Source: Salinivirgaceae bacterium (GTDB lineage: Bacteria > Bacteroidota > Bacteroidia > Bacteroidales > SZUA-534). Taken from it: a stretch of 64,000 nt of DNA. The translations under genes and the position numbers were made by a program. Position 1 is the stretch's first letter; every line of letters starts with the position of its first letter. The notes under the pieces were generated by a model that was given only the letters and a program-made list of their open reading frames with translations, searched no databases and was not told the origin of the DNA. The stretch is from the NCBI GenBank assembly GCA_041664345.1, contig JBAYKX010000023.1, forward strand, positions 10,558 to 74,557, in the 5' to 3' direction. Shown piece after piece: positions 3,495 through 62,635 of this stretch.

Positions 3495-5348
3495 ATGAAA
3501 CGAGTTACCTTTTATTTAGTTGTTTTTATTGCTTTTGCCTTTAATTTACAAGCAAAAATAACCTTGCAGCGTATTGAACCCATGAACTGGTGGGTTGGGA
3601 TGAATAACCCCAATTTGCAACTGCTGGTTTATGGCGAGAATATCTCTCTTACCCAACCCACGCTTAATTATCAAGGGGTGCAAGTGAAGGAAATCCATAA
3701 AGTGGAGAATCCCAATTATTTATTTATTGACCTCATGATTGGTGCCGAAACACAACCCGGAAAATTCACTATTGAATTTAAAGAAGGCAAAAAAAAGGTG
3801 GCTCAGTATGAATATGAATTAAAAGGCCGGAATACTAAGCCCAATATTCATAATGGTTTCAATGCTTCCGATGTTATTTATCTATTAATGCCCGACCGGT
3901 TTTCAAACGGTAATCCGGGAAACGATTCAACGATTAATACCCTTGAAAAAGCCAACCGGCAAAACCCCAATGGACGACATGGTGGAGATTTGCAAGGTGT
4001 AATCAATCATTTGGATTACATAACTGAAACCGGCTTTACTGCACTGTGGATGAATCCGTTTTTAGAGAATAATCAGGAAGAAACTACCTACCACGGATAT
4101 GCCATATCGGACTTCTATAAAGTGGATCCAAGGTATGGAACCAACGGGCAATTTGTTGAATTGGTTGATTTGGCTCACCAAAAACAGTTGAAAATCATCA
4201 TGGACATGATATTTAACCATTGTGGAAGTGGTCATTGGTTTATCAAAGATATGCCCATGAGCAACTGGATACATCAGCATAATTCCTATTTCCGTTCCAA
4301 TTTCAGGGCACCGGTAGTTTCTGATCCATATTCTTCAGAATACGATAAAAACCAAATGCTAACCGGCTGGTTCGATACCAATATGCCCGATTTGGATCAG
4401 CGCAATCCTTACTTGGCAACCTATCTAATTCAAAATACCATCTGGTGGATTGAATTTGCAGGGCTTGATGGCCTTCGTATTGATACACAACCGTATCCAT
4501 ACAAGGAATTTATAGCTGAGTGGGCAAAAGCAGTTATGGCACAATACCCAACGTTAAACATTGTGGGTGAAGCTTGGATTCAGCAAATACCCATTACAGC
4601 TTATTTCCAAGGAGGTGCTAAAAACAAAGATGGATACGATTCGCACATGAATAGTGTAACCGATTTCCCGATGCATGGAGCGTTAAACGAAGCATTCAAT
4701 GAACGTGAAGGATGGAGCGAAGGAATGGCCAAGCTGTACAATATACTTGCGCAAGATTTCACCTATTCCAATTCACAAAATCTGCTTGTTTTTGCCGATA
4801 ATCACGATTTAAACCGGTTTTATGAGTCGGTTGGCAAAGACCTGGACAAGTTTAAAATGGGGTTATCCTTTTTGTTGACTACGCGGGGCATTCCTCAGAT
4901 TTATTATGGAACCGAAATACTAATGGAGGGTAAAGAAAACCAGGGACACGGATTCATCCGAAAGGATTTTCCGGGTGGTTGGGCAGGTGATACCATCAAC
5001 GCTTTCACTCAAACAGGATTGACTGCCGAACAATTGGATGCTTACCAGTATGTTAAAAAATTATTGAATTGGCGTAAAAATAGTGAAACAATACATACTG
5101 GTAAATTGAAGCATTTTCTGCCCGATGATGGGGTTTATGTTACCTTCCGTTATACCGATAATCAGGCAGTGATGATTGTTTTAAACAATAGCGACACGAA
5201 CTCCAAAAGTTTAAAAACAGAACGGTTTAAGGAAATACTGAATGGATTTCATTCGGGTAAAGAAGTAATAACCGGAACAGTGTATGAAACCCTTGATTTG
5301 ATTGAAGTGCCGGCTAAATCGGCTTTAATTATAGAGCTTAGCAAATAG
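3495..5348 (+). CDS. GH13 cyclomaltodextrinase/neopullulanase-like enzyme (SusA-like), secreted
   Basis: Signal peptide. GH13 regions IIMDMIFNHCG, GLRIDTQPY, IVGEAW, FADNHDLNRF. The 617 aa length and N-terminal extra domain are typical of periplasmic neopullulanases in Bacteroidota starch loci. Confidence 0.8.
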   Translation: MKRVTFYLVVFIAFAFNLQAKITLQRIEPMNWWVGMNNPNLQLLVYGENISLTQPTLNYQGVQVKEIHKVENPNYLFIDLMIGAETQPGKFTIEFKEGKKKVAQYEYELKGRNTKPNIHNGFNASDVIYLLMPDRFSNGNPGNDSTINTLEKANRQNPNGRHGGDLQGVINHLDYITETGFTALWMNPFLENNQEETTYHGYAISDFYKVDPRYGTNGQFVELVDLAHQKQLKIIMDMIFNHCGSGHWFIKDMPMSNWIHQHNSYFRSNFRAPVVSDPYSSEYDKNQMLTGWFDTNMPDLDQRNPYLATYLIQNTIWWIEFAGLDGLRIDTQPYPYKEFIAEWAKAVMAQYPTLNIVGEAWIQQIPITAYFQGGAKNKDGYDSHMNSVTDFPMHGALNEAFNEREGWSEGMAKLYNILAQDFTYSNSQNLLVFADNHDLNRFYESVGKDLDKFKMGLSFLLTTRGIPQIYYGTEILMEGKENQGHGFIRKDFPGGWAGDTINAFTQTGLTAEQLDAYQYVKKLLNWRKNSETIHTGKLKHFLPDDGVYVTFRYTDNQAVMIVLNNSDTNSKSLKTERFKEILNGFHSGKEVITGTVYETLDLIEVPAKSALIIELSK

Positions 5349-15330: not shown

Positions 15331-15455
15331 GGAAGAGCGGGTGTTGAAACTTGCAGCGCCCCTGAGCTATCTCCGAGTCATTGGGGCAGGCCGCTGCAAG
15401 AAATTGAAAACTGGAATAATGGCAAAGGTGAATATATGGAAAATGGGAAAATGAG
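15331..15455 (+). repeat. Family C intergenic element, variant core with nested hairpin plus GG-rich short repeats
   Basis: Perfect 9-bp inverted repeat cttgcagcg (15350-15358) / cgctgcaag (15392-15400) enclosing an inner gcccc...ggggc pair. This is followed by aaattgaaaactgg and ggaaaatgggaaaatgagg, as in the other family C loci. Confidence 0.6.
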
Positions 15456-15527: not shown

Positions 15528-17330
15528 ATGAACCCTACTCAAATAGAAACCTACCGGAAGCGGATTGATCAGTTTGCCATTGAATTGAAAACTGCCAAAC
15601 AAAGACATGCTCTTGTTTCCATCATTCGGTTATTTTGTATTATTGGAATTTTAGTTTCGTGGTTTTGGGTGTTTACAATCAATCCCTGGTTGGGTTCATT
15701 TTTAGGAAATTTTTTAATTGTCCTATTCCTCATTTTGCTTAAAGTTCATAAAACAATTGAAGAAAAACGGGACTTCCTAATCCAATTGATTGAAATTAAC
15801 CAAAAAGAACTGGATTGCTGCCAAGGGATATTTAGCCAATTTGAAGGAGGAGAGGAATTTGTTGATACCAACCATCCGTATTCTTACGATATGGATTTAT
15901 TTGGTGCCGGGTCATTGTTCCAATACATTAACCGCACTGTCACAAATAAGGGCAAGGAGCTTTTGGCCAATTGGCTTCAGAATATACCCTTGGATGAAAC
16001 AACAATTTTGAAAAACCAAAAAGCTATAAGGGAACTTGTTCCACAACTTTCGTTTCGTCAAAAGTTCAGGGCTTATGGAAAAGTATTTCAAACAAAGGCT
16101 GAAGACGAGAGTATGGTTCATCGTTGGATGTTTCTCCCTTCGTTTTTTAAACGGGCAAAGGTTGCTTCAACAATACTTTGGATAGTACCTGCAATTAATA
16201 TTTGTATTTTAATCCTCGCTATTTTTGGTTTTATAGGATGGTCAGTTTTTACAGTTACCATCATTGTTAACTTAGCAATTGTCGGAAGTCGCTTAAAGCA
16301 ATTCAATGAGGCTTATGCGCTGCTCACCAAAAGTCACGGCAGCTTAAAACGAATGGAGCAATTGTTGCTTCTGGTAGAATCGCTGAACCCTGAATGCAGG
16401 TTGAGTAAAGAGTTGTTAAGCCTTTTACATAAAAACCAAATACCGGCAAGTCGTCAAATTAATAAGTTAACAAAACTTTTAGATGGACTTGATAACCGGA
16501 ATAATATTTTGATAGGAATACTGCTAAATTCCTTATTATTATGGGATTGGCAATACCTTTTTAGGATAGAAAAATGGGCTCAAAGCCACCGAACCGATTA
16601 CGATAATTGGATTTATACCATAGGATATTTTGACGCTTTGAATTGCTTGGCTAATTTTTCATTCAACAATTCCGATTTTACCTTTCCGGAAATAGTGCCT
16701 GTTGGATTCCAACTGAGTGCTGTTGAAATGGGTCATCCTTTATTACTCAAAGAAGATAGAATCTGCAACAATTTTGACCTTTCCGGACAGCCCAGGTATG
16801 CCATTGTTACGGGTGCTAATATGGCCGGCAAAAGCACTTTTTTAAGAACTGTGGGAGTAAATCTGATTTTAGCCGGATGTGGAGCCCCGGTTTGCGCCAA
16901 AGAATTTAAAGTTACTCCGCTGCCCTTGTATTCAAGTATGCGAACGGAAGATTCGTTGATGAAACATGAATCGTATTTTTATGCCGAACTTAAGCGATTG
17001 CAGCGCATTGTTCATGAGTTGGATAAAGGCCGTAAATTATTTATTGTTTTGGATGAAATTTTGCGGGGCACCAATTCTGAGGACAAGCGCAAAGGTTCCA
17101 TTGGGTTTGTAAAAAAGATTACCGAAAAAATGGCTTATGGTTTGGTGGCTACCCACGACTTGGAGCTGGCAAAATTGGCCGAACAACTGCCGCAACTATT
17201 TACTGCAATATGCTTCGAAGTAACTCTAAATAACAATGAATTGGAATTCGATTATAAGCTGCAGCCGGGAGTTACACAAAATATGAATGCTTCCTTTTTA
17301 ATGCAACGGATGGGGATTATTGATATATGA
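15528..17330 (+). CDS. MutS-related ATPase (MutS domain V only) with N-terminal transmembrane segments
   Basis: C-terminal Walker A GANMAGKSTFLRTVG, Walker B FIVLDEILRGTN, and ATHD. The N-terminal part has several hydrophobic helices. No mismatch-binding domain is recognisable. Confidence 0.8.
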   Translation: MNPTQIETYRKRIDQFAIELKTAKQRHALVSIIRLFCIIGILVSWFWVFTINPWLGSFLGNFLIVLFLILLKVHKTIEEKRDFLIQLIEINQKELDCCQGIFSQFEGGEEFVDTNHPYSYDMDLFGAGSLFQYINRTVTNKGKELLANWLQNIPLDETTILKNQKAIRELVPQLSFRQKFRAYGKVFQTKAEDESMVHRWMFLPSFFKRAKVASTILWIVPAINICILILAIFGFIGWSVFTVTIIVNLAIVGSRLKQFNEAYALLTKSHGSLKRMEQLLLLVESLNPECRLSKELLSLLHKNQIPASRQINKLTKLLDGLDNRNNILIGILLNSLLLWDWQYLFRIEKWAQSHRTDYDNWIYTIGYFDALNCLANFSFNNSDFTFPEIVPVGFQLSAVEMGHPLLLKEDRICNNFDLSGQPRYAIVTGANMAGKSTFLRTVGVNLILAGCGAPVCAKEFKVTPLPLYSSMRTEDSLMKHESYFYAELKRLQRIVHELDKGRKLFIVLDEILRGTNSEDKRKGSIGFVKKITEKMAYGLVATHDLELAKLAEQLPQLFTAICFEVTLNNNELEFDYKLQPGVTQNMNASFLMQRMGIIDI

Positions 17331-17333
17331 GTA

Positions 17334-17566
17334 GGGAACTTGCAGCGCCTGCTGCGAGAGATTGGAAAACTGGGATGATTGGAAAATGGGAAAGGGTTGC
17401 CAGGTTACAAGGCTGCAGGGTAGAAAGGTAGCAGGGTTACAAGGTAACAAGGGAACAAGGTGGCCGGGTTACAGGGTTACAAGGTGGGAAATTAGGAACG
17501 TTGGAACTTGCAGCGCCTGCTGCGAGACAAGCTGCTGCGAGAGATTGGAAAATTGGAGCAATGAAC
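17334..17566 (+). repeat. Family C intergenic element: two direct hairpin cores bracketing a degenerate octamer array
   Basis: Cores lie at 17335-17373 and 17503-17556 (ggaacttgcagcgcctgctgcgagagattggaaaaytgg). Between them are 8-nt units ttacaagg ctgcaggg tagaaagg tagcaggg ttacaagg taacaagg gaacaagg tggccggg ttacaggg ttacaagg. Confidence 0.7.
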
Positions 17567-17606
17567 ATAAAAAATACCCACCCCAGTAAATTTCAAGAAC
17601 CTACCG

Positions 17607-17788
17607 CAGGGAAATCGCTTTTAAGAATTTCAATTTTAAACACGCTTTTTCGGCGCATGGTTTTTCACAATTTCAATTAAACTGTAGTGCTTGCGCCGAT
17701 TTTATACCGCAAATTCATATACCCCGAGTTGAAACTCGGGACTATTCATATTAAATCCCTCCGGGATTTCTTAAAAGCGAATTCCCTG
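17607..17788 (+). mobile_element. MITE-like element, family A, copy 1 (182 bp)
   Basis: Terminal inverted repeat cagggaaatcgcttttaagaa / ttcttaaaagcgaattccctg with 1 mismatch. Flanked by a perfect 10-bp direct repeat gaacctaccg (17597-17606 and 17789-17798). No ORF. A second copy is inverted at 50110-50293. Confidence 0.8.
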
Positions 17789-17823
17789 GAACCTACCGGG
17801 ATGGGGATTATTGAATAGGGAAC

Positions 17824-20800
17824 TTATTCAATACTGATTTTCTTATAGTATATTTTTTCGGCGGTTGCTATCACCACAAAATAATTGCCCGTAGTAAGCC
17901 TCGAAAGGTTTATTCCTTTGGTTAAATTAACTGATTCATTGCTAAATACAATTTTACCGGTTGCATCCAACACTTTAACCTGTTGTACTTTGGTAACCGG
18001 GTTTAATGCTTTAATATGCAAGAACCCTCTGACAGGATTCGGATAAATGTTAAATGCCTCAGAAGCCTCAACCAGTAATTTAATGCCCAAATCGTTTTTA
18101 ACGAGAATAGCAAAAAAACATGTTATAGTCAATCCGCCCAAATCGCTAGCCTTAATAAGCAATTCATGCAATTGCTTATCGGTAGTAATGGTTTTGTTCA
18201 CTACCAAATTATGGCCGGTAATGGTATAGTTTTTTGTGTCATCCAAGTTAGTTTGAGTATCGGAGGTAAATTCGAAGGTGTGTGAATCGTTCATATCTTC
18301 GTCCTCTACATTCAAAACACCAACCACCGTACCCAGCATATCGGAAACAAAAACCGTATCGTTGCTTAATAAAATGTCGGTTGGGGCTTCGTTAACATTG
18401 TTAATGATTACTTCAAAACTTCTTTCCATGCTGGAATTACCCTCGTCTATAGCTTTTATTCGATAATATAGTTTTGATTTAAATTCATAGTTAAATTCAG
18501 CACCAGATAATAAATTATAACCATCAATTGAAAATGCATTGTTATCATCGGAGCCAATTCCATCAACTAATTCAAATGAATGATTGCCCTGAGAATCTTC
18601 ATCAAATACTTGTAAATTAGCAACTACTGTATTTAATGGCATGTTTTCGTAAATTGTATATCCAATATAACCTATTTCAGTAATCGGGTCATTCATATCG
18701 GTTACCGTTAATACAAACCCCTTTTCAAATGAATCTCCTTCCGAATCAATGGTTTTGACCCTAATTTTTAGTTCATTCTTAGCCTCAAAGTTTTGAGTAT
18801 AAGCTTTTAACTGATTACCTTCAATAGTAAAATAAGTGTTATCATCGGAACCTTCCCCGACTACAAGTTCATAAGTAAAGCTATCGTTGCTGTTTTTATC
18901 AATAGTTGATAACGTGCTTATTGCCGATAAATCAGGCAAGTTTTCAGCAAAACTGGCAAACGACAATTGAATATCGGTAGGTGGATAATTGATGGGAAGA
19001 TACAAGCTCTGTATGTCGTTGGTATAGGTAGCTGTCATAAAACCATAGTATCCGGTACCAAAATACACCGAATCGCCCAAAGCAAATGAAATGGGATTAT
19101 TTCGGTTGTTCCCCAAATTTAGTAAGTCGCCCAAGTTTTCAACTTGATTGGTGCTTGGTTTGTAGCTTACAATATCTTTCTTGTTACCATAACAGATATA
19201 CCCTTTATTCCCAATTCCAATAGCTGTGGCATCATTCACTGAGAGATGTAATCCATCGGCAAAAATTTTCTGTTGCCAGCTATTGGTTGCCGGGTTGTAT
19301 TCCTGTATATCGCTCGATTGCGATGTCCCATTGGAATAGTTGACCCCTCCCGAAACATAACCCTTGCCCTCAACCACAAAGGCACAGGCCGATGTTCTTT
19401 TTGCTCCCGTAAAGGTGGCAATTTCAGACCACGAGTCATGTACGGCATCGTATTTCCAAAAGTCCTTTGTTTCATCCATTGCATCGGCTCCGGTGCCTAC
19501 ATAAGCGGTATCGTTAATAACAAAGCTAACCGCATCGTAACGGGCGGTTCCTGCAAAATTGCCAAGGGTTGTCCATTGATTGGTGGCAGGGTTGTATTCA
19601 TAAAAATCGGGATAGTAAGTAAAGGGGTATTTACTGCCTCCCAAGCCAACGTAACCCTTTCCATTAACAGCAAATGCAACAGCTTCTGTTCTTGCTGCCC
19701 CAGGGAAAGGAGCTACCTTTGTCCATACATCGGTTCCGGCATTATATTTCCAAAAGTCGCTTAACACACTGTCGGCATTTTCGCCCAAACCCACATAAAC
19801 GGTATTATCAATGGTAAAACTTACCGCACTGGAACGGGGAATTCCCCGGAAGGGATTGATTCCCGTTTCATCCACATCAATCAGGTTGATGGTAATGGTG
19901 GCGGTATCGGAAAATTCGCCATCGAAAGCCACTACTTGAAGGTTAAAAGATGGGTTAACTTCGTAATCTAAAAAGAGGTTGTTATTTACCGATATTCCAC
20001 CGGTTGAAGCATTTATAGCAAAAGTATTGTACAAGTTACCGGAAATTATAGCATGCGCTAATACATCGCCATCTAAATCGGAAGCAACAACAGAACCAAT
20101 AATAGTTCCATTCTGCTGGTTTTCTAAAACAGAAAATTCAGTATCAAGAAACTCTATGGATTCGTTTATATTTAAAATATTAATGGTAATTGCTGCGGTG
20201 TCGCTTAATTCTCCATCAGACACTAGCGTTAGAAGTTCAAAAGTTTTGTTTTCTTCAAAGTTTATAGCCGTGGAATCTATTACATAAACAACCCCTGTAG
20301 AGTCAATCACCCCAAAAACCTTATCGAGGCTTGCATGAATAATAGAATAGGTCAATTTTGAATTGAAATCTTCATCGGCAGCAACCAACGTGTCTAAAAT
20401 TGTACTATTATTTGGGTTTTCAGGAATGTTTAAAACTAAATCGGATAGGTGGGGTTTTTCATTTAGATCAATTAAATCTATATCAACTTTAACCGAATCA
20501 ATTAATTGACCATCAGAAACTAAAATTTTTAGATTAAATGATTTGTTTAGTTCATAGCTTAAATATTGTGTGTTTTTAATTTGAATGGCTCCTGTTGTGG
20601 AATTAAGGTCAAACACATTACTTATATTGCCCGAAACAATGGTGTAATTTAATGCATCATTATCTTCATCAAAAGCTTCTAGTTGATAAATAATTGAATC
20701 ATTGGGTAAATTTTCCTCTATTTCTAACTGTTTATAAGGGTTACATATAAGTTCATTAACATTATCAATTTGAATATTAACGAAAGAAGTATCAACAAAT

Positions 20801-22194
20801 TCCCCATCAGAAACTTGTACATATAAACTGAAATTTTGATTCTCTTCATAGTTGATTAAAGAAGAATCCATAACATAAATAACACCGGTCGAGTCAACTA
20901 CTCCAAATGCACCAGATGGATTTGCCTGAACAATAGAAAAAACATGGGTATCATTATAATCTTCGTCAGAAATTAAAATGGTATCAACAATTGAATTGTT
21001 TAAAGGATTTTCATCTATCAACTCTTGCAAATTATTGGTCAAAACTCTTTCATTAACATCATTAATTTTAATGTTGTAGCCTATGAGTTTGCTTGATGAT
21101 CCATCATATATTTTAATTATTGCGTACAATGAATCGTTTCGTTCAAAGTTAAAGTAACTTGAATCAATAATCGAAATCTGCCCTGTTTCACTATCTAATT
21201 TAATTGCATTATCATCATTCCCATCAAAGACCGAAAACTCTAGAATTCCATTACCATAATAATAAGCATCAACAGTATCAAGTATCTGATTATTATTTTG
21301 ATTTTCATTTATTTGGATTTCTTGATTATAAGTATAAAGTTCAGGCCCTTGATATTCATAAGCACCTATATCAATTCTTCCATATTGAATTCTTTCATTA
21401 CCTTCAAAATCATAATTAGTTATTAAAGAATCATTTGTAAAATTTGGGTCGCCCATATTTATGCAGGGTGATGTATTTTGTAACGCATAAGGATTTGCAC
21501 CGGAACCCACAAATAAAGGATCAACATCTATATTGCCATCAGCTTGTAATTGAGCCCCCACAATATCACAATTGGTTATTTTAGGAGTTGAGTTGTATGG
21601 ATCTAAATTTGCCTGCCCATTGCCTGAAACAATGCAGTTTGATATTTCAGATAAGGAGTAATTTATTTGAATTCCAGAAACTTGATTATCCGATATGGTA
21701 TTGTTTGTTATTTTAGGTGAAGAAAAATCACAACTAATACCAATCCAATAATTTTTTACAATTAGGTTCCCTTCGATTCGTGGAGATGCTTGATAACAAT
21801 AAATTGCTTCATTATTGTTACGTGTAATTAAATTATTAGCTACAATAAGTTTATTCATATTATAAACACACAGTGCACTACCATAGCCATCAAGCCAATA
21901 ACTGCCAAAGGCATTCCCAAACTGCATAATACAGAATTCAATTTTTGAAGTATCGTTTGAGCTGGGTGTTTCTAAAAACCGAATACCACCCCAACCACCA
22001 CTGATATAAGTCAATACCGAGTCTTTGGCTGTAAAAATTATCCTATTTTGTGCCGTTCCTTGGGCTAAAATCCTTCCTTGCACATTGAGTTTGTAATGCC
22101 CCTGAAACTCTACATAAACCCCCGGGTTTATGGTTAAGGTGCGGGCATTGTTAATGGTTAAGTTGTTATAACTTTTATGGTGTCGGCACTCCAT
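17824..22194 (-). CDS. C-terminal fragment of giant T9SS-secreted adhesin (beta-helix module 4, cadherin-like repeats, Kelch-like beta-propeller, more cadherin-like repeats, T9SS C-terminal domain)
   Basis: Its first residues (NNLTINNARTLTINPGVYVEFQGHYKLNVQGRIL) continue the repeat that the upstream ORF breaks off in. Cadherin-type domain ends are present (INDVNE, IDNVNE, LIDLNEKP, VTDMNDP). Kelch-like repeats (FWKYN..WT, FYEYNPATNQW). C-terminal IYPNPVRGFLHI... sorting domain. Confidence 0.8.
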   Translation of the reverse strand: MECRHHKSYNNLTINNARTLTINPGVYVEFQGHYKLNVQGRILAQGTAQNRIIFTAKDSVLTYISGGWGGIRFLETPSSNDTSKIEFCIMQFGNAFGSYWLDGYGSALCVYNMNKLIVANNLITRNNNEAIYCYQASPRIEGNLIVKNYWIGISCDFSSPKITNNTISDNQVSGIQINYSLSEISNCIVSGNGQANLDPYNSTPKITNCDIVGAQLQADGNIDVDPLFVGSGANPYALQNTSPCINMGDPNFTNDSLITNYDFEGNERIQYGRIDIGAYEYQGPELYTYNQEIQINENQNNNQILDTVDAYYYGNGILEFSVFDGNDDNAIKLDSETGQISIIDSSYFNFERNDSLYAIIKIYDGSSSKLIGYNIKINDVNERVLTNNLQELIDENPLNNSIVDTILISDEDYNDTHVFSIVQANPSGAFGVVDSTGVIYVMDSSLINYEENQNFSLYVQVSDGEFVDTSFVNIQIDNVNELICNPYKQLEIEENLPNDSIIYQLEAFDEDNDALNYTIVSGNISNVFDLNSTTGAIQIKNTQYLSYELNKSFNLKILVSDGQLIDSVKVDIDLIDLNEKPHLSDLVLNIPENPNNSTILDTLVAADEDFNSKLTYSIIHASLDKVFGVIDSTGVVYVIDSTAINFEENKTFELLTLVSDGELSDTAAITINILNINESIEFLDTEFSVLENQQNGTIIGSVVASDLDGDVLAHAIISGNLYNTFAINASTGGISVNNNLFLDYEVNPSFNLQVVAFDGEFSDTATITINLIDVDETGINPFRGIPRSSAVSFTIDNTVYVGLGENADSVLSDFWKYNAGTDVWTKVAPFPGAARTEAVAFAVNGKGYVGLGGSKYPFTYYPDFYEYNPATNQWTTLGNFAGTARYDAVSFVINDTAYVGTGADAMDETKDFWKYDAVHDSWSEIATFTGAKRTSACAFVVEGKGYVSGGVNYSNGTSQSSDIQEYNPATNSWQQKIFADGLHLSVNDATAIGIGNKGYICYGNKKDIVSYKPSTNQVENLGDLLNLGNNRNNPISFALGDSVYFGTGYYGFMTATYTNDIQSLYLPINYPPTDIQLSFASFAENLPDLSAISTLSTIDKNSNDSFTYELVVGEGSDDNTYFTIEGNQLKAYTQNFEAKNELKIRVKTIDSEGDSFEKGFVLTVTDMNDPITEIGYIGYTIYENMPLNTVVANLQVFDEDSQGNHSFELVDGIGSDDNNAFSIDGYNLLSGAEFNYEFKSKLYYRIKAIDEGNSSMERSFEVIINNVNEAPTDILLSNDTVFVSDMLGTVVGVLNVEDEDMNDSHTFEFTSDTQTNLDDTKNYTITGHNLVVNKTITTDKQLHELLIKASDLGGLTITCFFAILVKNDLGIKLLVEASEAFNIYPNPVRGFLHIKALNPVTKVQQVKVLDATGKIVFSNESVNLTKGINLSRLTTGNYFVVIATAEKIYYKKISIE

Positions 22195-25100
22195 ACTACA
22201 TCTTCATTGGGGAGTTCAAAATATTCATTTGAATTGAGTACATAAATTTCGGTAATGAGTGTATCGGATAAAACGCCATTGCTCACTTTTATCTTCAAAT
22301 GGTAGTTAGTTTCTGCCTGGGCCTCTGTTGGAACCCATTTTATTGTATCGTTTTCAATTGACAAACCACTCGGGGCCTCAATTATGGTGTAAGTTACTCC
22401 TGAAGGAAAACTTATCGGTTTTATTGCTTCTGCATAAACGGAATCAAAACGGATGTGCTTTTTTCTGATTGTACGGAAAACTAAAAACGAATCAGGGTCG
22501 CTTTGCAGTTCGTATGCACCCATATCAATTGTAGGGTTTGTTCCCCCTTCGTAAATCCTTGGGTTACCGGCTATGTCCATGTTTATTTCCAAACTATCCG
22601 TATCCCAATCGGGTCGCCCGGAATTTAAACAAGGTGATGTTTTTTGTAACGCATAAGGATTTGAACCGGATACCACAAATAAAGGATCCACATCTATATT
22701 GCCATCAGCTTGTAAATTAGCTCCCACAATATCGCAATTGGTTATTATAGGAGTTGAGTTGTATTGTTCTAAATTTGCCTGCCAATTTCCTGAAACAATG
22801 CAGTTTGTAAGTTGCGGAGACGAGCTTTGTAAAGATATTCCACAATAACCTTGATTATCCGATATGGTATTGTTTGTTATTTTAGGTGAAGAATTATAGC
22901 AATTAATACCATTCCCATAATTTTTTACCATCAAGTTCCCTTCAATTAATGGTGATGCATTATTACAATAGATTGCAGAATTCCAACTAGATGATCTGTT
23001 TTTTGCAATTAAATTATTGGTAATTTTAATTTTGTCAAAACCATAAATACATAATGCGCCTCCATGACCATCAAGCCCATCACTGCCAAAGGCATTCCCA
23101 AACTGTATGATACAGAATTCAATTTTTGATGTATCGTTTGAGCTGGGTGTTTCTAAAAACCGAATACCACCCCAACCTCCACTAGTATCAGTTAATACCG
23201 AGTCTTTGTCTGTAAATGTTATCCTGTTTTGTACCGTTCCCCGTGCTAAAATTCTTCCTTGTACATTTAATTTATAATGCCCCTGGAATTCCACATAAAC
23301 GCCTGGGTTTATGGTTAAGGTACGGGCATTGTTAATGGTTAAGTTATTAATAACTTTTATGGTGTCGGCACTCCATACAACATCTTCATTGGGGAGTACA
23401 AAATATTCATTTGAATTGAGTACATAAATTTCGGTATTGAGTGTATCGGATAAAACGCCATTGCTCACTTTTATCTTCAAATTATAGTTTGTTTCTGCCT
23501 GGGCCAATGTTGGAACCCATTTTATGGTATCGTTTTCAATTGCCAAACCACTTGGGGCTTCAATTATGATGTAAGTTACCCCTGAAGGAAAACTTATCGG
23601 TTTTATTGCTTCTGCATAAACGGAACCAAAACGGATGTGCTTTTTCCCGATTGTACGGAAAACTAAAAACGGATCAGGGTCGCTTTGCAGTTCGTAGGCA
23701 CCCATATCAATGGTAGGGTTTGAACCAAAAGTATAAATCCTTGGGTTACCGGCTATGTCCATGTTTATTCCCAAACTATCCGTATCCCAATCGGGGCGTC
23801 CGGTATTTAAACAGGGTGATGTATTTTGTAACGCATAAGGATTTGCACCGGAACCCACAAATAAAGGATTTATATCCATATTGCCATCAGCTTGTAAATG
23901 AGCCCCCACAATATCGCAATTGGTTATTTTAGGAGTTGAATAGTATTGAGCTAAATTTCCATCCCCATTGCCTGAAACAATGCAGTTAGTAAGTTGCGGA
24001 GAGGAACTAACTAAATATATCCCATAATCTTGATTATCCGATATGGTGTTGTTTGTTATTTTAGGTGAAGAATTATCACAATAAATACTATAATAATAAT
24101 TTTTTACAATTAGGTTCCCTTCGATTCGTGGAGATGCATGATAACAAAAAATTGTGTAGTATCTGTTACGTATAAATAAACTATTAGCTACAATAAGTTT
24201 ATTCATATTAGAAACACACAATGAACTTCCAAATTGATCGAGCCAATCGTCACTGCCAAATGCATTCCCAAACTGCATAATACAGAATTCAATTTTTGAA
24301 GTATCGTTGGCACTTGGTGTAGAATAAAACCTAATTCCACCCCAACCACCACTGGTACCAGTTAATATTGAGTCTTTGGCTGTAAAAGTAATTCTGTTTT
24401 GTGCCGTTCCCCGGGCTAAAATCCTTCCTTGTACATTGAGCTTGTAATGCCCCTGAAACTCCACATAAACCCCCGGGTTTATGGTTAAAGTGCGGGCATT
24501 ATTAATGGTTAAGTTATTAATAACTTTTATAGTGTCGGCACTCCATACAACATCTTCATCGGGGAGTTCAAAATATTCATTTGAATTGAGTACATAAATT
24601 TCGGTATGGAGCGTGTCGAATAAAACGCCATTGCTCACTTTTATCTTCAAATTGTAGTTTGTTTCTGCCTGGGCCAATGTTGGAACCCATTTTATGGTAT
24701 CATTTTCAATTACCAAACCACTTGGAGCCTCAATTATGGTGTAAGTTATCCCTGAAGGAAAGCTTATCGGTTTTATTGCTTCTGCATAAACGGAACCAAA
24801 ACGGATGTGCTTTTTTCCGATTGTACGGAAAACTAAAAACGGATCGGGATTGCTTTGCCGTTCGTATGCGCCCATATCAATTGTAGGGTTTGTTCCCCCT
24901 GTGTAAATCCTTGGGTTACCGGCTATGTCCATGTTTATTCCCAAGCTATCAATATCCCAATCGGGTCGCCCGGTATTTAAACAGGGTGATGTATTTTGTA
25001 ACGCATAAAGATTTGAACCGGAACCCACAAATAAAGGATCTGCATCTATATTGCCATCAGCTTGTAAATTAGCTCCCACAATATCGCAATGGGTTATTTT

Positions 25101-25957: not shown

Positions 25958-26268
25958 AAAGTTGGGGATTTGGAAAGTTGGGAAGTTGGGGAAAGGGTAG
26001 CAAGGTAACAAGGTTGCAGGGTTACAAGATGGAAAATTGGGGACGTTGGAACTTGCAGCACCCGCTGCGAGACATGCCGCAGAGAGAGATTGGAAAATTG
26101 GGAAAATGGGAAGTTTCCAAGCCCAAAGGACGTTGGAAAGTCGGTAGTTATTCCTTTTTAACTTTCCATAGCCACATTGACGTTTCCATGTCCTCCGGAC
26201 GATGGAAAGTCAGTGCTGATGTGGAAAAGTCGTTGAAATTTGAAATTCTGGAAAGATGGGAAATTGGA
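25958..26268 (+). repeat. Family C intergenic element (heptamer/octamer-type units + hairpin core + extra hairpins)
   Basis: Reads aagttgg gaagttgg..., then tagcaagg taacaagg ttgcaggg ttacaaga, then the core ggaacttgcagcacccgctgcgagacatgccgcagagagagattggaaaattgg at 26048-26101. Next come the hairpins tggaaagt...actttcca and tttccat...atggaaa. Confidence 0.65.
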
Positions 26269-26270
26269 AA

Positions 26271-26316
26271 GGTTGAAAAATGGAATTATTTCTTTCCATT
26301 TTTCAACCTTTTTTAT
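26271..26316. terminator. Strong hairpin, probable (bidirectional) terminator
   Basis: Perfect 13-bp stem ggttgaaaaatgg (26271-26283) / ccatttttcaacc (26296-26308), followed by ttttttatt. It lies directly 3' of the minus-strand gene ending at 26320. Confidence 0.65.
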
Positions 26317-26319
26317 TGG

Positions 26320-27123
26320 TTAGAACACCCAACCAATGCGTAGTCCAGCAGTACCAGCAATGGGTACTTCTTCACCTCCAGTTGCGAAGCCGTAGGCTAT
26401 TCCTTCACCATTGCCACCAGCTTTGCTATAGCCATAGCCAAATCCAACATATAAATCCACTAAAAATGAATCATCGATTACCCATTGTTTACCAAACTTT
26501 AGCATTAATGCAATGGCAAAATCATCCTCACGCTTGGTTGATGAATTGTAAGGGTAATAATAATCATAATCATAAGTATCAAAATACATGTAGCGTAATG
26601 CAAATTCAGGAGCAATGTAAGCCCCTTTAAGAATGTGTGAATAACGCATTTTATTCATATAAAGGTCGGGTGTTCTTATAAATTTATAGGCAAATTTGGT
26701 ATATACTCCCGCTGGATTATTTTCCTGAGGATCGAATCCCAAACCTACTATACCAAGCGCAGCTTCAAAGGATTTCCCGGGTTTTATATTTTGTTCGTAG
26801 GCAAATTCGGTGCTACCGTATAAAGGCGACAGAAAATTAATTTTAAGGGCTCGCCGGCTTTGATTGGTATAATAATCCGGATTATCAAAACTGTTGTTTT
26901 CCATTTTAACAACTTCACCAGTTGAAAATTCAACTCTATCAACCAAGGATTTTTCTATTCCAAAAATAATTTTAGGATTGCTTTGGTAAAAATACTTTAT
27001 TTTATCACTGCCCAATTCCGATACAGTGCAAGTAATAACATCGCCATTTGTTTTAATAATTTTATCTTGAGCAACCGATGTTAGGGTTATAAAGACCAAT
27101 AGAAAGCTAATAATATTTTTCAT
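26320..27123 (-). CDS. Hypothetical outer-membrane beta-barrel protein
   Basis: Signal peptide (MKNIISFLLVFITLTSVAQ). Alternating aromatic/glycine-rich strands and a terminal ...GLRIGWVF, as is typical of OM beta-barrels. No specific family recognised. Confidence 0.55.
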   Translation of the reverse strand: MKNIISFLLVFITLTSVAQDKIIKTNGDVITCTVSELGSDKIKYFYQSNPKIIFGIEKSLVDRVEFSTGEVVKMENNSFDNPDYYTNQSRRALKINFLSPLYGSTEFAYEQNIKPGKSFEAALGIVGLGFDPQENNPAGVYTKFAYKFIRTPDLYMNKMRYSHILKGAYIAPEFALRYMYFDTYDYDYYYPYNSSTKREDDFAIALMLKFGKQWVIDDSFLVDLYVGFGYGYSKAGGNGEGIAYGFATGGEEVPIAGTAGLRIGWVF

Positions 27124-28998: not shown

Positions 28999-29844
28999 AT
29001 GAACTCATTTTTAGAATTATTCCATTATACTTTTATCAATCACGCCTTATTGGCTGCTGTTTTATCGAGCATTATATGTGGAATTTTGGGAACTTATATT
29101 GTGAGCAAACGCATGGTATTTATCTCCGGTGGAATCACCCATGCTTCGTTTGGTGGTATTGGAATGGCATTTTACTTTGGTTTGTCTCCTTTTATAGGAG
29201 CCACAGCGTTTGCCTTGCTTTCGGCACTGGGCATTGAATGGATATCGAAAAAAGGCAACATTCGCAACGATTCCAGCATCGGTATTCTTTGGTCGTTGGG
29301 TATGGCTATCGGGATTATTTTTGTTTACATCACACCCGGTTTTACACCCAATTTAATGAGTTACCTGTTTGGAAGTATATTAACTGTTGGAGGCTCTGAA
29401 TTATGGATAATGACAGTGCTTGCCGGGGTAATCATCTTGTTTTTCACCCTATTCTACCGACCTATACTTTTCTTTGCATTCGACGAAAGCTTTGCCCGTT
29501 CGCAAAAGGCTCCGGTGGCTTTCCTGAATTACACCCTTATATTGCTCATTGCCTTTGGAATTGTGATAAATATAAAAGTGGCCGGAATCATTTTGGTAAT
29601 GAGCATGCTTACCCTGCCCCAAAACACAGCCAACCTGTTTTCAAACAATTTTAAACACATACTAATTTACTCCATATTGATTAGTTTAGCCGGAACATTG
29701 GCTGGACTGGCAGGCTCGTTCTGGTTAGGAATTCCATCGGGAGCAGCCATCATTTTTACGCTTTCGCTCATATTTTTTATTGCCAAAATTGCCAAGCTTA
29801 TTTTTGATAGAAGGAAAAGAGAGAAAACAGAGATTAGAAGTTAG
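28999..29844 (+). CDS. znuB: Zinc/metal ABC transporter permease (ABC-3 family)
   Basis: 281 aa, multi-TM, follows znuC by 3 nt. The last codons and the TAG stop lie inside the first units of the downstream heptamer array. Confidence 0.85.
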   Translation: MNSFLELFHYTFINHALLAAVLSSIICGILGTYIVSKRMVFISGGITHASFGGIGMAFYFGLSPFIGATAFALLSALGIEWISKKGNIRNDSSIGILWSLGMAIGIIFVYITPGFTPNLMSYLFGSILTVGGSELWIMTVLAGVIILFFTLFYRPILFFAFDESFARSQKAPVAFLNYTLILLIAFGIVINIKVAGIILVMSMLTLPQNTANLFSNNFKHILIYSILISLAGTLAGLAGSFWLGIPSGAAIIFTLSLIFFIAKIAKLIFDRRKREKTEIRS

Positions 29845-30246
29845 AAGACCGAAGTTGGAAGTCAGAAGAATGAAGACGGAAGTTAGAAGTCAGAAGTTGG
29901 AAGACCGAAGCTAGAGTTTAGAAACAAGAAAACAGAGACAAGAAAACAGAGACAAGAAACCAGTACCAAAAGTTGGAAAATGTGGCAGCCCTAAAAGGGC
30001 GAAAGAACATAGCCAAGGGCAACGCCCTTGGTAAAGTAGCACAAGTAATAAGCGGTGCATCCAACTAAGTTGCAATGGAATGGAAACATAACATGCACCG
30101 CAATATAGATAGAGCAATTGGAAGTTGGAAGTTAAAGATTAGAAATTAGGAATTAGATGTTAGAAACTAGAAGCCAGATAATAGAATCTAGAAACCAGTA
30201 ACTAGCATCCAGCAACCAATAACCAGTAACCAGTAACCAGCAACCT
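29824..30246 (+). repeat. Family C composite element: 20 degenerate heptamers, ~150-nt hairpin-rich unique core, 18 degenerate heptamers
   Basis: Parsed directly. The left arm 29824-29963 reads aaaacag agattag aagttag aagaccg aagttgg aagtcag.... The right arm 30115-30240 reads caattgg aagttgg aagttaa agattag ... taaccag taaccag taaccag. Confidence 0.8.
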
Positions 30247-33623: not shown

Positions 33624-34316
33624 CTAAAACAGCACCCCAATTTTTAAGGCTACACTGCGCACCGATACATTATCGCTAACTGCCTTTCCTTCATTGGAAG
33701 TGGCATCGATAAAACCGTTGTTATAAATCAGGCCAACGGTAAGTGCCGTGTTTTTCGAAAAATAATAGTTGAACCCGGCACCAATATTATAACCCAGGTT
33801 ATAAAAACTTACTTCGTCTTTACAGCCTACGCCACCCATTGAGGTGCTTAATAAAGGATTGATGGATTCAATATCGGCGGATGCCCCAATACGGAATTGG
33901 TTGGTAATGCCAAATTGCGCATAATAAACAAAATAGCCTATTTGGTTCGATTCCATGCGGAACGACAAAGGAATTTCGATGTACTGGAGCTTATATTTTA
34001 TCTGGGTTTCCGGAAATAGTGAATCGGTAGAAGTATTGGTAGTAAAAGCATTGGTATCGCTGTAAAGCAATTTTCCACCCGTATTGTTGATATACAACCC
34101 CGAGGACAAACTATAACGTTCCGCAAAAAAGAAATCGGATTGCAATCCAAAGCTAAAACCCAGGGTGGCACCATCGGATTTAACTGATTCTACATCGGAT
34201 TTCATCCATGAAGTTTGGGGGTTAAAGTTTAATCCCATACGGACACCTTGGGAGTAAATGGTAACAGGAATAATTACCAGTAACAATGCAACAGAAACGG
34301 TTTTTAACATGTTCAT
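33624..34316 (-). CDS. Outer-membrane beta-barrel protein (PorT/OMP_b-brl_2-like)
   Basis: Signal peptide. ~230 aa of alternating beta-strand pattern ending ...ALKIGVLF. Assignment to a specific family is tentative. Confidence 0.55.
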   Translation of the reverse strand: MNMLKTVSVALLLVIIPVTIYSQGVRMGLNFNPQTSWMKSDVESVKSDGATLGFSFGLQSDFFFAERYSLSSGLYINNTGGKLLYSDTNAFTTNTSTDSLFPETQIKYKLQYIEIPLSFRMESNQIGYFVYYAQFGITNQFRIGASADIESINPLLSTSMGGVGCKDEVSFYNLGYNIGAGFNYYFSKNTALTVGLIYNNGFIDATSNEGKAVSDNVSVRSVALKIGVLF

Positions 34317-34399
34317 TTTTTTTAAATTGTAATTTGGACTTTAAAAACTGTCGTAAAGATAAATAATTTCGACAAGCCTGTTTATATTTGTGAATAACA

Positions 34400-35421
34400 T
34401 TGGAAAACTTACATACCATGAAATCATACGGAATTATTAGCCTTGTACTTTTGCCTCTTTTATGGCAAAGTTGTTCCCGCAGTCAATGGGATATTGATAT
34501 ATCGAATATTGAAATTTCGCAACAGTATCAGAGGTTCGATGTGGATCTGTTTTCGGCCAACCCCGATAGTTTATGGCAAATGGTGCCTAAATGGGAGCAG
34601 AAATACGGCAATTTTTTTGAGGCATACAACCAACAAATCATCAAAATTGGAGGCAGCAATCAAATGGATTATGCCAAAAAATTGAAATACTTTCTTACCG
34701 ATCCATACATTGCCGATGCTTATACCGATGTTCAGCTAAAATTTAGTGAATTGCCCTTTAAAGATGAGCTTATTGACGCATTTAAGCGCTACTATTATCA
34801 TTTTCCGGATAAAAAAATCCCCAATATTTACACACACGTTTCAGGTTTTAATCAATCCATAGTGGTTGATTCGGCTTATATTAGCATCAATTTGGATAAA
34901 TATTTAGGACCCGATTCGAAGTTTGATAGCATGTTGCGCACTCCGCAGTACCTGAGTGAGAACATGCACCCACAAAAGATACCCGCCGATGTGATGATGG
35001 CCTTGGCATTGACTGAATTCCCCTTTTCCGGTGAAAAGGACGATCTGCTCAGTCAATGCTTTATTATGGAAAAATACATGTATTTGTTGATGCCATGCTC
35101 CCCGAAACAACCGATACTTTGAAATGGGGATACACACAGGAAAAAATCAGGTGGTGCCAAAAGAACGAAAAGTTTATGTGGCTGTATTTGATTGAATACA
35201 AACTGCTATTCAATTCGAGTTATAAAGAGAAAAAACGGTATATTGATGATGGCCCATTTACCTCCACTTTTTCGAATGAATCGCCTGCCCGAACCGGTCA
35301 GTGGTTGGGTTACCAAATAGTGAATGCTTACCTCAAGGAACATCCGGAGGTTAAACTGCCGCAATTAATGGAGGATCAAAACTATCAGGAAATCTTGAAT
35401 AAGTCGAAGTATAAGCCGTAA
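34400..35421 (+). pseudogene. gldB: Gliding-motility lipoprotein GldB, frameshifted (track ORFs 34400-35122 and 35056-35421)
   Basis: The likely start is the ATG at 34418 (MKSYGIISLVLLPLLWQSC lipobox). The frame switches between 35035 and 35058: ...SGEKDDLLSQ then MLYYGKIHVFVDAMLPETTDTLKWGYT.... The span 34418-35421 is 1004 nt, one short of a multiple of 3. The nadE neighbourhood fits the gldB context known from Flavobacterium. Confidence 0.7.
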
Positions 35422-35466
35422 GGAGTTTATTCAACAGCACCTAATAAAACCATTATATTTACTTGC

Positions 35467-62469: not shown

Positions 62470-62635
62470 CAGTTCTTCTTCTGTCTCCTGGTTGCTGGTT
62501 GCTCGTTACTGGTTGCAGGGTTTCAAGGTTTCAGGGTTGAAGGGTTAAATGGTTACAAGGTTAAATTGTTACTATCCAGCTTCTAATCTCTAATCTCTAA
62601 CTTCTAACTTCCAACTTCCGACTTCTAGCTTCCAT
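62470..62635 (-). repeat. Family C composite element (heptamers - octamers - heptamers), reverse orientation
   Basis: The minus strand reads aagctag aagtcgg aagttgg aagttag aagttag agattag agattag aagctgg. Next come the octamers taacaatt taaccttg taaccatt taaccctt caaccctg aaaccttg aaaccctg, then caaccag taacgag caaccag caaccag. Confidence 0.75.

Follow-up and report, generated by a model that had tools for sequence, protein, structure and literature searches.

A probable BIME-like mosaic of REP/REPIN-type hairpins and a degenerate octamer array at a rearrangement hot spot in a Bacteroidota genome

The window analyzed here, a stretch of 64,000 nucleotides (contig C23, positions 10558-74557), comes from a Bacteroidota genome of 5.57 Mb with 37% G+C in 127 contigs, whose nearest publicly available relatives are MAGs that carry the label Bacteroidales or Salinivirgaceae. 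This genome is referred to as G000, its relatives as G001 and up, and contigs by C-numbers; window coordinates are used unless a contig is named. The element under study lies in the gap at 17331-17823 between two convergent genes: a mutS2-like gene encoding a MutS_V/MutS_III protein (15528-17330, + strand, stop codon TGA at 17328-17330) and a cadherin/Kelch T9SS adhesin gene (17824-22194, - strand, stop codon at 17824-17826). T9SS cargo is found among the genes neighbouring the element in the window. A separately deposited ENA assembly of the same organism is identical base for base over 17300-17830.

A search of the window with a 15-nt core pattern, allowing up to two mismatches, returned four sites and no more, each of them on the + strand (15346, 17335, 17503 and 26048), compared with 0.14 in shuffles; the four copies stand in direct orientation within 10.7 kb. 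The core, GGAA-CTTGCAGC-GCCT-GCTGCGAG at 17335 and 17503, recurs at 26048 and 15346, and both the pattern search and the sequence as read agree with the core strings and positions given in a preliminary description of this DNA. The small hairpin mentioned there is present and longer than proposed, with an 8-bp stem (CTTGCAGC/GCTGCGAG) that includes one U-G pair and carries the loop GCCT. Copy A (17335-17358, + strand, 48.9 bits with the covariance model introduced below), with the string GGAACTTGCAGCGCCTGCTGCGAGAGATTGGAAAACTGG starting at 17335, begins 4 nt past the mutS2-like TGA, as had been reported. The hairpin consists of the foot GGAA (17335-17338), the 5' stem CTTGCAGC (17339-17346), the loop GCCT (17347-17350) and the 3' stem GCTGCGAG (17351-17358). 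The 3' end of the mutS2-like gene (GGATGGGGATTATTGA...TGA) and the hairpin foot GGGAACTT together (17308-17341, + strand) form the left copy of a direct repeat, the right copy of which is a relic described below.

Copy A is followed by a purine-rich tail (AGATTGGAAAACTGGGATGATTGGAAAATGGGAAAGGG..., 17359-17401, + strand) of GGAA-type 8-mers in phase with the array, in which Tandem Repeats Finder (TRF) reports a period of 17 at 17360-17391. The octamer array that had been proposed between the two cores was recovered by TRF at 17402-17485 (+ strand) as ten degenerate, gap-free RGGTWRCA-class units (period 8, 10.5 copies, 69% matches, 0% indels); period 16 also scores. A linker, GGGAAATTAGGAACGTT(G) (17486-17502, + strand), which by alignment is common to copy C and to the orthologous element of the closest relative, leads into copy B (17503-17556, + strand, 46.5 bits). 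Copy B comprises the foot, 8-bp stem and GCCT loop (17503-17526), a 15-nt extension, ACAAGCTGCTGCGAG, and the tail AGATTGGAAAATTGG, and thus equals the copy A string plus the 15 extra bases. What had been taken for an internal duplication is more readily explained as one of three long-loop variants, ending ...GAGACAGGCT-GCTGCGAG, that recur, being found too at C1:189857 and in one relative.

An unrelated MITE of 182 bp (17607-17788 within 17597-17798, no strand assigned), with terminal inverted repeats CAGGGAAATCGCTTTTAAG and CTTAAAAGCGAATTCCCTG and a 10-bp target duplication (GAACCTACCG), is inserted between copy B and the relic. The relic, GGATGGGGATTATTGAATAGGGAACTT (27 nt, 17799-17825, + strand), repeats the mutS2-like 3' end together with the hairpin foot; it abuts the adhesin stop codon and is identical in form to the single-hairpin site of the relative G006. 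Beyond the 8-kb adhesin block, GGAA-type and RGGTWRCA octamers with a copy-B-type linker (GGTTACAAGATGGAAAATTGGGGACGTTG; 25958-26047, + strand) precede copy C (CTTGCAGC-ACCC-GCTGCGAG, ACATGCCGCAGAGAG and AGATTGGAAAATTGG; 26048-26101, + strand, 42.5 bits), the closest relative of copy B. Copy D (15346-15414, + strand; covariance-model match at C23:25900-25960, E 0.08) lies upstream of the mutS2-like gene and has a long-loop form, as does copy B, with an outer stem CTTGCAGCG/CGCTGCAAG and a nested GCCCC...GGGGC hairpin.

The stretch 17328-17600 folds at -75.9 kcal/mol (z = -2.15), and in the minimum-free-energy structure both hairpins form while the array is weakly paired. No canonical intrinsic terminator (hairpin plus U-tract) was detected at 17331-17900, the stems being followed by AGAGAUUGG instead; no promoter-like or terminator-like site frames the element; and Rfam covariance models gave no match on the hairpins or the array, whether the gathering threshold or a limit of E 10 was applied. 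The "Pedo-repair" motif was likewise unsupported as an identity, as no Rfam family matches the hairpins. An independent small-RNA gene, whose two hairpins would flank a repeat-rich body acting in trans, could account for the fold z-score and for the covarying structure reported below. It is nevertheless extremely improbable, given the lack of a framing site and of an Rfam match, an array body that is not conserved even in the closest relative, and a hairpin that is a dispersed repeat present in both orientations.

A first pass with a regular expression and nhmmer found dozens of hairpin copies in the genome, and a covariance model built from 23 short-loop copies gave 45 matches on more than 25 contigs. 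With more than 80 further copies in six relatives, the core clearly recurs beyond the window, a point that the preliminary description had proposed to check. The true copies listed are intergenic, save for overlaps with spurious ORFs. Their loop is either 4 nt long or one of three inserts of 19-25 nt, all of which end in (G/A)RCAGGCT ahead of the 3' stem and two of which hold a nested hairpin. A sister hairpin, designated type 2, has the form GGA(A/C)-AGCGAAGC-GCCT-GCTTCGCT and usually lies inverted, 8-60 nt from a type 1 copy, so that the doublets read GGAACTCGCAGCGCCTGCTGCGAG...AAAGCGAAGCAGGCGCTTCGCT(G/T)TCC. An inverted partner is present within ~100 nt for at least 13/42 copies in this genome; among the relatives, doublets predominate. 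Set against MITEs, which have terminal inverted repeats and a target-site duplication, the doublets show inverted hairpin ends, but a consistent target duplication was not seen around them.

Hairpin structure was analyzed in 104 distinct short-loop hairpins from eight genomes, selected for at least 7/8 pairs, a selection that inflates the 98.4% of helix cells found paired. Compensatory change, which the preliminary description had proposed to look for, is nonetheless evident in the stem: pair 12-23 occurs as CG 52, AU 21, UA 13 and GC 10 with just 2 unpaired, though the filter would pass one mismatch, and both partners change in pairs 8-27, 9-26 and 11-24 as well. Doubly changed cells number 109 over the whole helix, where shuffling gives 26.8 ± 3.9. 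Positions A13, G14, C21 and T22 are invariant, and C15, loop G16-C18 and G20 are at least 90% conserved. The foot, GGAA or GGAC, is conserved as well (G4 and A6 invariant, G5 at least 90%) and differs from the classic GTAG. Because the basal changes are compensatory and the apical bases invariant, the basal stem is constrained in pairing only and the apex in sequence. Covariation can also arise in a palindromic DNA repeat that has no RNA function.

The non-Watson-Crick cells are strongly asymmetric, with 48 G-T wobbles versus 1 A-C on the GGAA strand; on the complementary strand the 48 wobbles would be 48 mismatches. The rule holds for each hairpin type on its own GGAA strand, though the two types occupy opposite strands in a doublet. 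Since wobbles are confined to the GGAA strand in both types, the pattern indicates that the sequences would be recognized strand by strand, as single-stranded hairpins, which would fit HUH/Y1 enzymes acting on ssDNA at least as well as RNA.

The covariance model was also searched against 40 relatives, six of which contain 6-22 copies. Within the same genus, the family is present in G002 (22 copies), G006 (9) and G003 (1) and absent from G001, G004 and G005, which are 99-100% complete. In genus g2 it occurs in G014 (12), G016 (18) and G018 (6) and is missing from G007 and G020, and in genus g4 it was found in G009 (13). The hairpin is absent from G008 and from all other members searched in other genera of the family, and 16 other families of the order gave no covariance-model match.

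Judged by crude long-ORF gene calls, 27/37 copies share the orientation of the upstream gene and 10/37 are antisense to it (p ~0.004, one-sided, normal approximation), and 14 copies lie in convergent gaps by the same crude calls. At four loci, the present one included, a copy starts 2-6 nt past a stop codon. Such placement would also fit selection at the RNA level, and it invites a reading as a cis-acting RNA module, in which the hairpins would be 3'-end barriers or terminators for the gene reading in, the inverted partner would serve the opposite gene in convergent gaps, and the purine-rich octamers, with little structure of their own, would be a spacer or a protein-binding platform. The U-G wobbles on the sense strand agree with this, as do the lack of a hairpin-plus-U-tract terminator in 17331-17823, the folding of two hairpins beside a weakly paired array, and the finding that related G-rich heptamers of Xanthomonas are mostly transcribed and lie within 50 bp of stop codons (PMC4692102). 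A module of this kind is nevertheless unlikely, as the hairpin is missing from three complete congeneric genomes and from most of the family, 10/37 copies are antisense to the upstream gene, and the type 1 stem has no U-tract after it. Moreover, copies are found inside a RAYT gene and flanking RAYT genes, their number varies at orthologous sites, and the genome has no CsrA gene that could act on GGA arrays.

The octamer array belongs to an abundant class of its own. Whole-genome TRF analysis revealed a large excess of periods 7/14/21/28 and 8/16/24/32, which merge into 273 period-7 arrays (15 kb) and 140 period-8 arrays (7 kb), ~410 in total. By crude ORF calls, ~86% of these are intergenic in a genome that is ~87% coding. 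Unit families are many, including AACCAGT, TTAGAAA, AGAAGTT, GGAARATG and RGGTWRCA, and in co-directional gaps the purine-rich array strand is usually the sense strand. The RGGTNNCA/RGGTWRCA class accounts for 229 overlapping pattern matches in this genome; among the relatives, RGGTNNCA matches number 66 in G008, which lacks the hairpins, 20 in G003 and 0 in several hairpin-positive genomes. GAAGNNN heptamers are distributed similarly. On the basis of these independent distributions across genomes, arrays and hairpins are regarded as separate entities.

The two are nonetheless found together more often than expected. The earlier statement that the core always adjoins G-rich short repeats applies to the four window copies; genome-wide, just 14/42 copies have a period-7/8 array within 60 nt, which is ~5x the random intergenic mean of 2.6 (maximum 7 in 300 trials). 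This figure is TRF-based; a purine-content classifier for array embedding mis-scored RGGTWRCA arrays and was set aside. Array-embedded hairpins inspected by eye sit in GGAA/GGGAA-type purine arrays, and none in the commoner AACCAGT or TTAGAAA heptamers. A role for the octamers as a CsrA sponge was also considered, their units resembling the SELEX consensus RUACARGGAUGU, and was rejected, PF02599 having no match in the genome.

Genes of the PF05635 family ("23S rRNA IVS protein") show a tie to the arrays. Each of the five in the genome (5/5) has 7/8-mer arrays on either side, with a unit of its own, and 10/14 PF05635 loci fetched from relatives are flanked likewise. The arms of one such gene, C2:73455-73754, are of the RGGTWRCA class, as is the array at 17402-17485. 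Because the gap at 17331-17823 contains neither a PF05635 gene nor an inverted partner arm, this array is at most a solo arm of the PF05635-arm class. PF05635 gene number does not predict array abundance, as genomes carry 2-15 such genes, array-poor ones included.

Candidate enzymes for the hairpin family were sought among transposases. Three divergent proteins of this genome match the NCBIfam REP-associated tyrosine transposase model with E-values of 2.5e-14 to 3.6e-17 and scores of 53-64 bits, below the cut-off of 80. One of their genes, C55:34559-35221 (NF047646, E 2.5e-14), located near a contig end, has three covariance-model matches within 400 nt downstream and half-hairpins upstream. 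In G006, a REP_Tyr_transpos-like gene on contig C105 (NF047646, E 1e-17), which encodes HUH-like "HVH" and "YYTLNNP" motifs, has a type 2 hairpin upstream, a type 1 hairpin downstream in inverted orientation and an in-frame insert of 96 nt made up of three hairpins; G000 and G002 retain a doublet alone at the orthologous site. A decayed RAYT remnant also lies between two doublets in G016. The association of the family with RAYT-like genes is clearer in G006, where C105 is flanked on both sides, and weaker in the present genome (C55, downstream only). The G006-type subtype is absent from G000 by tblastn, the nearest C55 RAYT homologues in relatives are not clearly flanked by the hairpin family, and the presence of a C55-type RAYT shows no clean correlation with hairpins across 16 genomes. 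With the G006 subtype absent and C55-type homologues not tracking the hairpins, the partner enzyme in G000 is a candidate only. Four strong IS200-like Y1_Tnp (PF01797) genes were discarded as partners because they are flanked by other, unrelated palindromes.

The history of the locus was approached by comparing the interval between the mutS2-like gene and the OMP gene. In G006, whose MutS-like protein is 76% identical, the stop codon overlaps GGGAAC and is followed by one hairpin and three GGAA octamers. In G002 (90% identical), the stop is followed by 11 octamers, the copy-B linker, one hairpin, a small ORF with a VapD-like ORF (our own reading of the sequence) and a second hairpin. In G000, hairpin A and its tail lead into 10 octamers, the linker and hairpin B; 40 nt further on come the MITE, the relic, the adhesin block to 25850, octamers, the linker again and hairpin C. 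The bracketing of an array by two hairpins, emphasized in the preliminary description, is therefore real at 17335/17503 and is not a fixed unit, as the closest relative has the array with one hairpin and the next relative one hairpin with three octamers. Joining the relic to the copy C stem, with 17825 as the join point, recreates the G006 site. Between G000 and G002, the arrays align in their 3' linker and differ in unit order, a combination that slippage-driven turnover would give.

Comparable differences exist elsewhere. At a second locus, on C33, a half-hairpin, an antitoxin gene with a PIN toxin gene, and a full hairpin occur with a 21-nt direct repeat, where G002 carries just one hairpin. 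In a further orthologous gap, G006 has 1 hairpin against 3-4 in G000. Given these differing layouts at orthologous loci, the hairpins mark junctions of structural variation. They might accordingly be viewed as recombination or attachment sites for gene cassettes, either attC-like or as IS200/IS605-type hairpin ends with cargo, with the octamer "cassette" as a degenerate case. The coexistence of a single-hairpin state (G006), a state with the VapD-like pair between hairpins (G002) and one with the adhesin between hairpins (G000) would suit such sites, as would the rebuilt G006 junction, the C33 arrangement and the direct orientation of the four window copies. Subterminal one-strand hairpins and a short conserved 5' sequence also recall IS200/IS605 ends and PATEs, the derivatives of such elements that have lost their genes, and direct end hairpins would fit the bracket. 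This support comes from two loci, where crossover points are not demonstrably identical. The C33 cassette is flanked by different hairpins of its own, and 80 homologous PIN loci elsewhere, including an 85% identical copy, have no hairpin match, which led us to reject the idea that the PIN cassette travels with the hairpin. Neither TnpA nor TnpB lies between the copies, and the IS200-like Y1_Tnp genes have other palindromes; unlike integron cassettes, the genes here occupy both strands. REPs are already known to be hot spots where insertions and rearrangements occur, behaviour that explains the same pattern, and cassette attachment sites are accordingly very unlikely. In view of the PIN cassettes elsewhere that lack a hairpin, we read the hairpins as rearrangement hot spots rather than as proven cassette ends.

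Overall, we assign a probability of roughly 60% to the interpretation that the feature is a local BIME-like mosaic, at a rearrangement hot spot, of REP/REPIN-type hairpins and an STRR-like octamer array. Selfish repeat DNA is the most likely nature of the element. The copies and covariation of a conserved structured element have been borne out, and the patchy distribution, the inverted doublets with opposite-strand wobbles, the RAYT flanking, the copy-number differences and the lack of an Rfam match together point to a REP/REPIN-type DNA repeat and away from a small-RNA gene. The hairpin would represent a REP-type element defined by its GGA(A/C) foot, an 8-bp stem with a pairing-only basal half and a near-invariant apical AGC-GCCT-GCT. 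Its GGAA strand, as a single-stranded hairpin, may be recognized by a RAYT-like (HUH/Y1) tyrosine transposase, which would place copies at new sites and amplify the element locally, giving rise with the sister hairpin to REPIN-like inverted doublets. The octamer array, one of the ~410 degenerate period-7/8 arrays and of the PF05635-arm class, would grow, shrink and drift by replication slippage. Co-location could follow if GGAA-rich arrays offer many foot or target motifs and if hairpins promote local duplication. As a side effect, once they are part of the 3' end of the mutS2-like mRNA, the hairpins probably also act as a 3' barrier, and by analogy with E. coli REPs such an effect on mRNA 3' ends is plausible. 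Neither a transposition intermediate nor an excision scar or target duplication was seen for the hairpins.

The REP/RAYT system has reportedly been treated by Nunvar in 2010 and by Ton-Hoang in 2012. REP/REPIN elements and RAYT transposases constitute a known system (Bertels & Rainey 2011, PMC3116915). The present family resembles the REP/BIME/REPIN elements and RAYTs of E. coli and Pseudomonas in its 24-nt imperfect palindrome with a conserved 4-nt foot, its dozens of extragenic copies, its inverted doublets and mosaic clusters, its variable copy number between relatives, its RAYT-like genes flanked by hairpins and its position at gene 3' ends. It differs in that the foot is GGA(A/C) rather than GTAG, the doublet members have different basal stems, the copy number (~45) is low by REP standards, the host is an uncultured, Salinivirgaceae-like member of the Bacteroidota, and the RAYT-like scores fall below the NCBIfam cut-off. 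The foot and the low copy number weigh against the REP reading. In contrast to BIMEs, the linkers here are long degenerate octamer arrays rather than fixed linker motifs.

For the arrays, Mazel reportedly described heptamer arrays (STRR) in cyanobacteria in 1990, and Elhai et al. are said to have reported in 2008 the SDR of Nostoc punctiforme, tiny hairpin elements in repeat-rich contexts. On that description, SDR would resemble the present family in being a 20-30-nt hairpin-forming dispersed element near short tandem repeats, and would differ in phylum and sequence. Related repeats include the LSSR of Mrazek 2007, as far as these are presented in PMC4679880, the TAACTGA repeats of Beggiatoaceae, Cyanobacteria and Bacteroidetes (PMC4679880) and the GGGNATC repeats of Xanthomonas and Nostoc (PMC4692102). 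Like STRR, LSSR and heptamer arrays, the arrays here consist of head-to-tail 7-8-nt units at hundreds of intergenic loci, with strand asymmetry, a patchy distribution, unit numbers and sequences that vary between close relatives, and frequent proximity to stop codons. Unlike them, the array has an 8-nt unit (RGGTWRCA) with 69% matches, and many unit families share one genome; the heptanucleotide unit of a strict STRR does not apply to this period-8 array, whereas heptamer arrays are abundant elsewhere in the genome. The G-quadruplex reading of heptamers also differs, as the array contains no run of four short-looped G3 tracts.

The literature searched contained nothing on such hairpins in Bacteroidetes and no paper linking PF05635 to heptamer arrays. 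The kind of element is thus known, while its anatomy, host phylum, embedding in GGAA arrays and the tie between PF05635 and arrays are not described in that literature. To our knowledge, REP elements and RAYT have been worked out almost only in Proteobacteria, and we know of no explanation since 1990 for intergenic arrays of 7-8 nt. This genome contains hairpins and arrays at high density, physically interleaved and with candidate enzymes, and the locus retains empty, small-insert and large-insert states across three related genomes. A bolder proposal, which we consider quite unlikely, is that an HUH/Y1 system with cargo uses the hairpins as its working ends or as attachment sites and cuts at, or targets, the foot GGA(A/C); 7/8-mer arrays rich in GGAA would then be target-rich landing pads, and direct pairs would mobilize or capture what lies between them. 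The captured material would then be toxin-antitoxin pairs, the 8-kb adhesin gene or just an array, and REP-like hairpins, STRR-like arrays and cassette-like insertions would be joined in one Bacteroidota mechanism.

The BIME-like mosaic favoured here also has practical consequences for annotation and assembly. Contig breaks in related MAGs are expected to cluster at such hairpin/array elements, and annotators should note that the repeats give rise to artefactual ORFs, among them 17362-17589 and 26029-26343.

Short tandem arrays with units of 7 or 8 nt occur on both sides of all five PF05635 genes of the genome under study, which lie outside the window at C2:73263-73958, C1:193893-194337, C48:29045-29837, C41:16719-17225 and C34:27172-27765. 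PF05635 designates the 23S rRNA intervening-sequence protein, a four-helix bundle. The unit sequence of the flanking arrays differs from one gene to the next, and in relatives 10 of the 14 PF05635 genes retrieved are likewise flanked by arrays. In the same genome, also outside the window, PDDEXK_3 (GxxExxY) genes (C65:2717-3055, C12:21428-21772, C36:46916-47239 and C1:191468-191788) have short boxes in inverted orientation on either side, for example AATCTGTGAATCTGTGGC / GCCACAGATTCAC.

A third palindromic repeat family, GACTTTCCATCGTCCGGAGGACATGGAAACGTC, was observed in the window at 26125-26215, adjoining the type 1 REP-like hairpin copy at 26048 (hairpin C). At least five copies of this palindrome surround the gene resembling a REP-associated tyrosine transposase (RAYT) on C55, being distributed on both sides of it (34290-34530 and 35320-35660). 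The RAYT-like gene of the same-genus relative G006 (C105; positions 1290-1385 of the retrieved stretch) carries an in-frame insertion of three hairpins in the order type 1 reverse, type 2 (the sister hairpin), type 1 reverse, which adds approximately 32 stop-free codons (…SSQQALQVPLDSEASASLKSSEQVLRVP…).

Between the mutS2-like gene and the convergent cadherin/Kelch T9SS adhesin gene, a 27-nt duplicate at 17799-17825 comprises the mutS2-like 3' end together with the hairpin foot and abuts the adhesin stop codon, and the genuine mutS2-like gene end (17308-17330) has now diverged to ...GATATATGA. The adhesin is called as a single 2675-residue product in an independent ENA assembly of the same organism (positions 3797-4803 of the stretch retrieved), which is consistent with an assembly error behind the split of this gene at 22150-22200 of the window. 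In the closest relative, G002, an ORF of approximately 60 codons and a putative VapD-like ORF, so named from its translation, lie between the two hairpins (C551, 445-930 of the retrieved stretch). ORFs also run through the repeat arrays of the window at 17362-17589 (+, 75 codons) and 26029-26343 (+, approximately 105 codons); both are almost certainly artefactual, since purine-rich repeats contain few stop codons.

Elsewhere in the window, the Rfam family Acido-Lenti-1 matches 29987-30031 (-) with 41.6 bits against a gathering score of 37, the match being situated in a unique core with long heptamer arrays on either side (29822-29963 and 30116-30245). A composite array without the hairpin core, (CTGGTTG)n followed by (GGTTNNAN)n and (CTTCTAA)n, occupies 62488-62632, and its outer arms run in reverse to the heptamers at 29.8-30.2 kb. 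Outside the window, C2:52400-75200 contains a series of minus-strand genes of approximately 2.4 kb with paired inverted octamer arrays between them, (RGGTTTCA)n and then (CCTTGYYA)n; in each unit 6 of the 8 bases agree between the arms, which therefore could form long interrupted hairpins.
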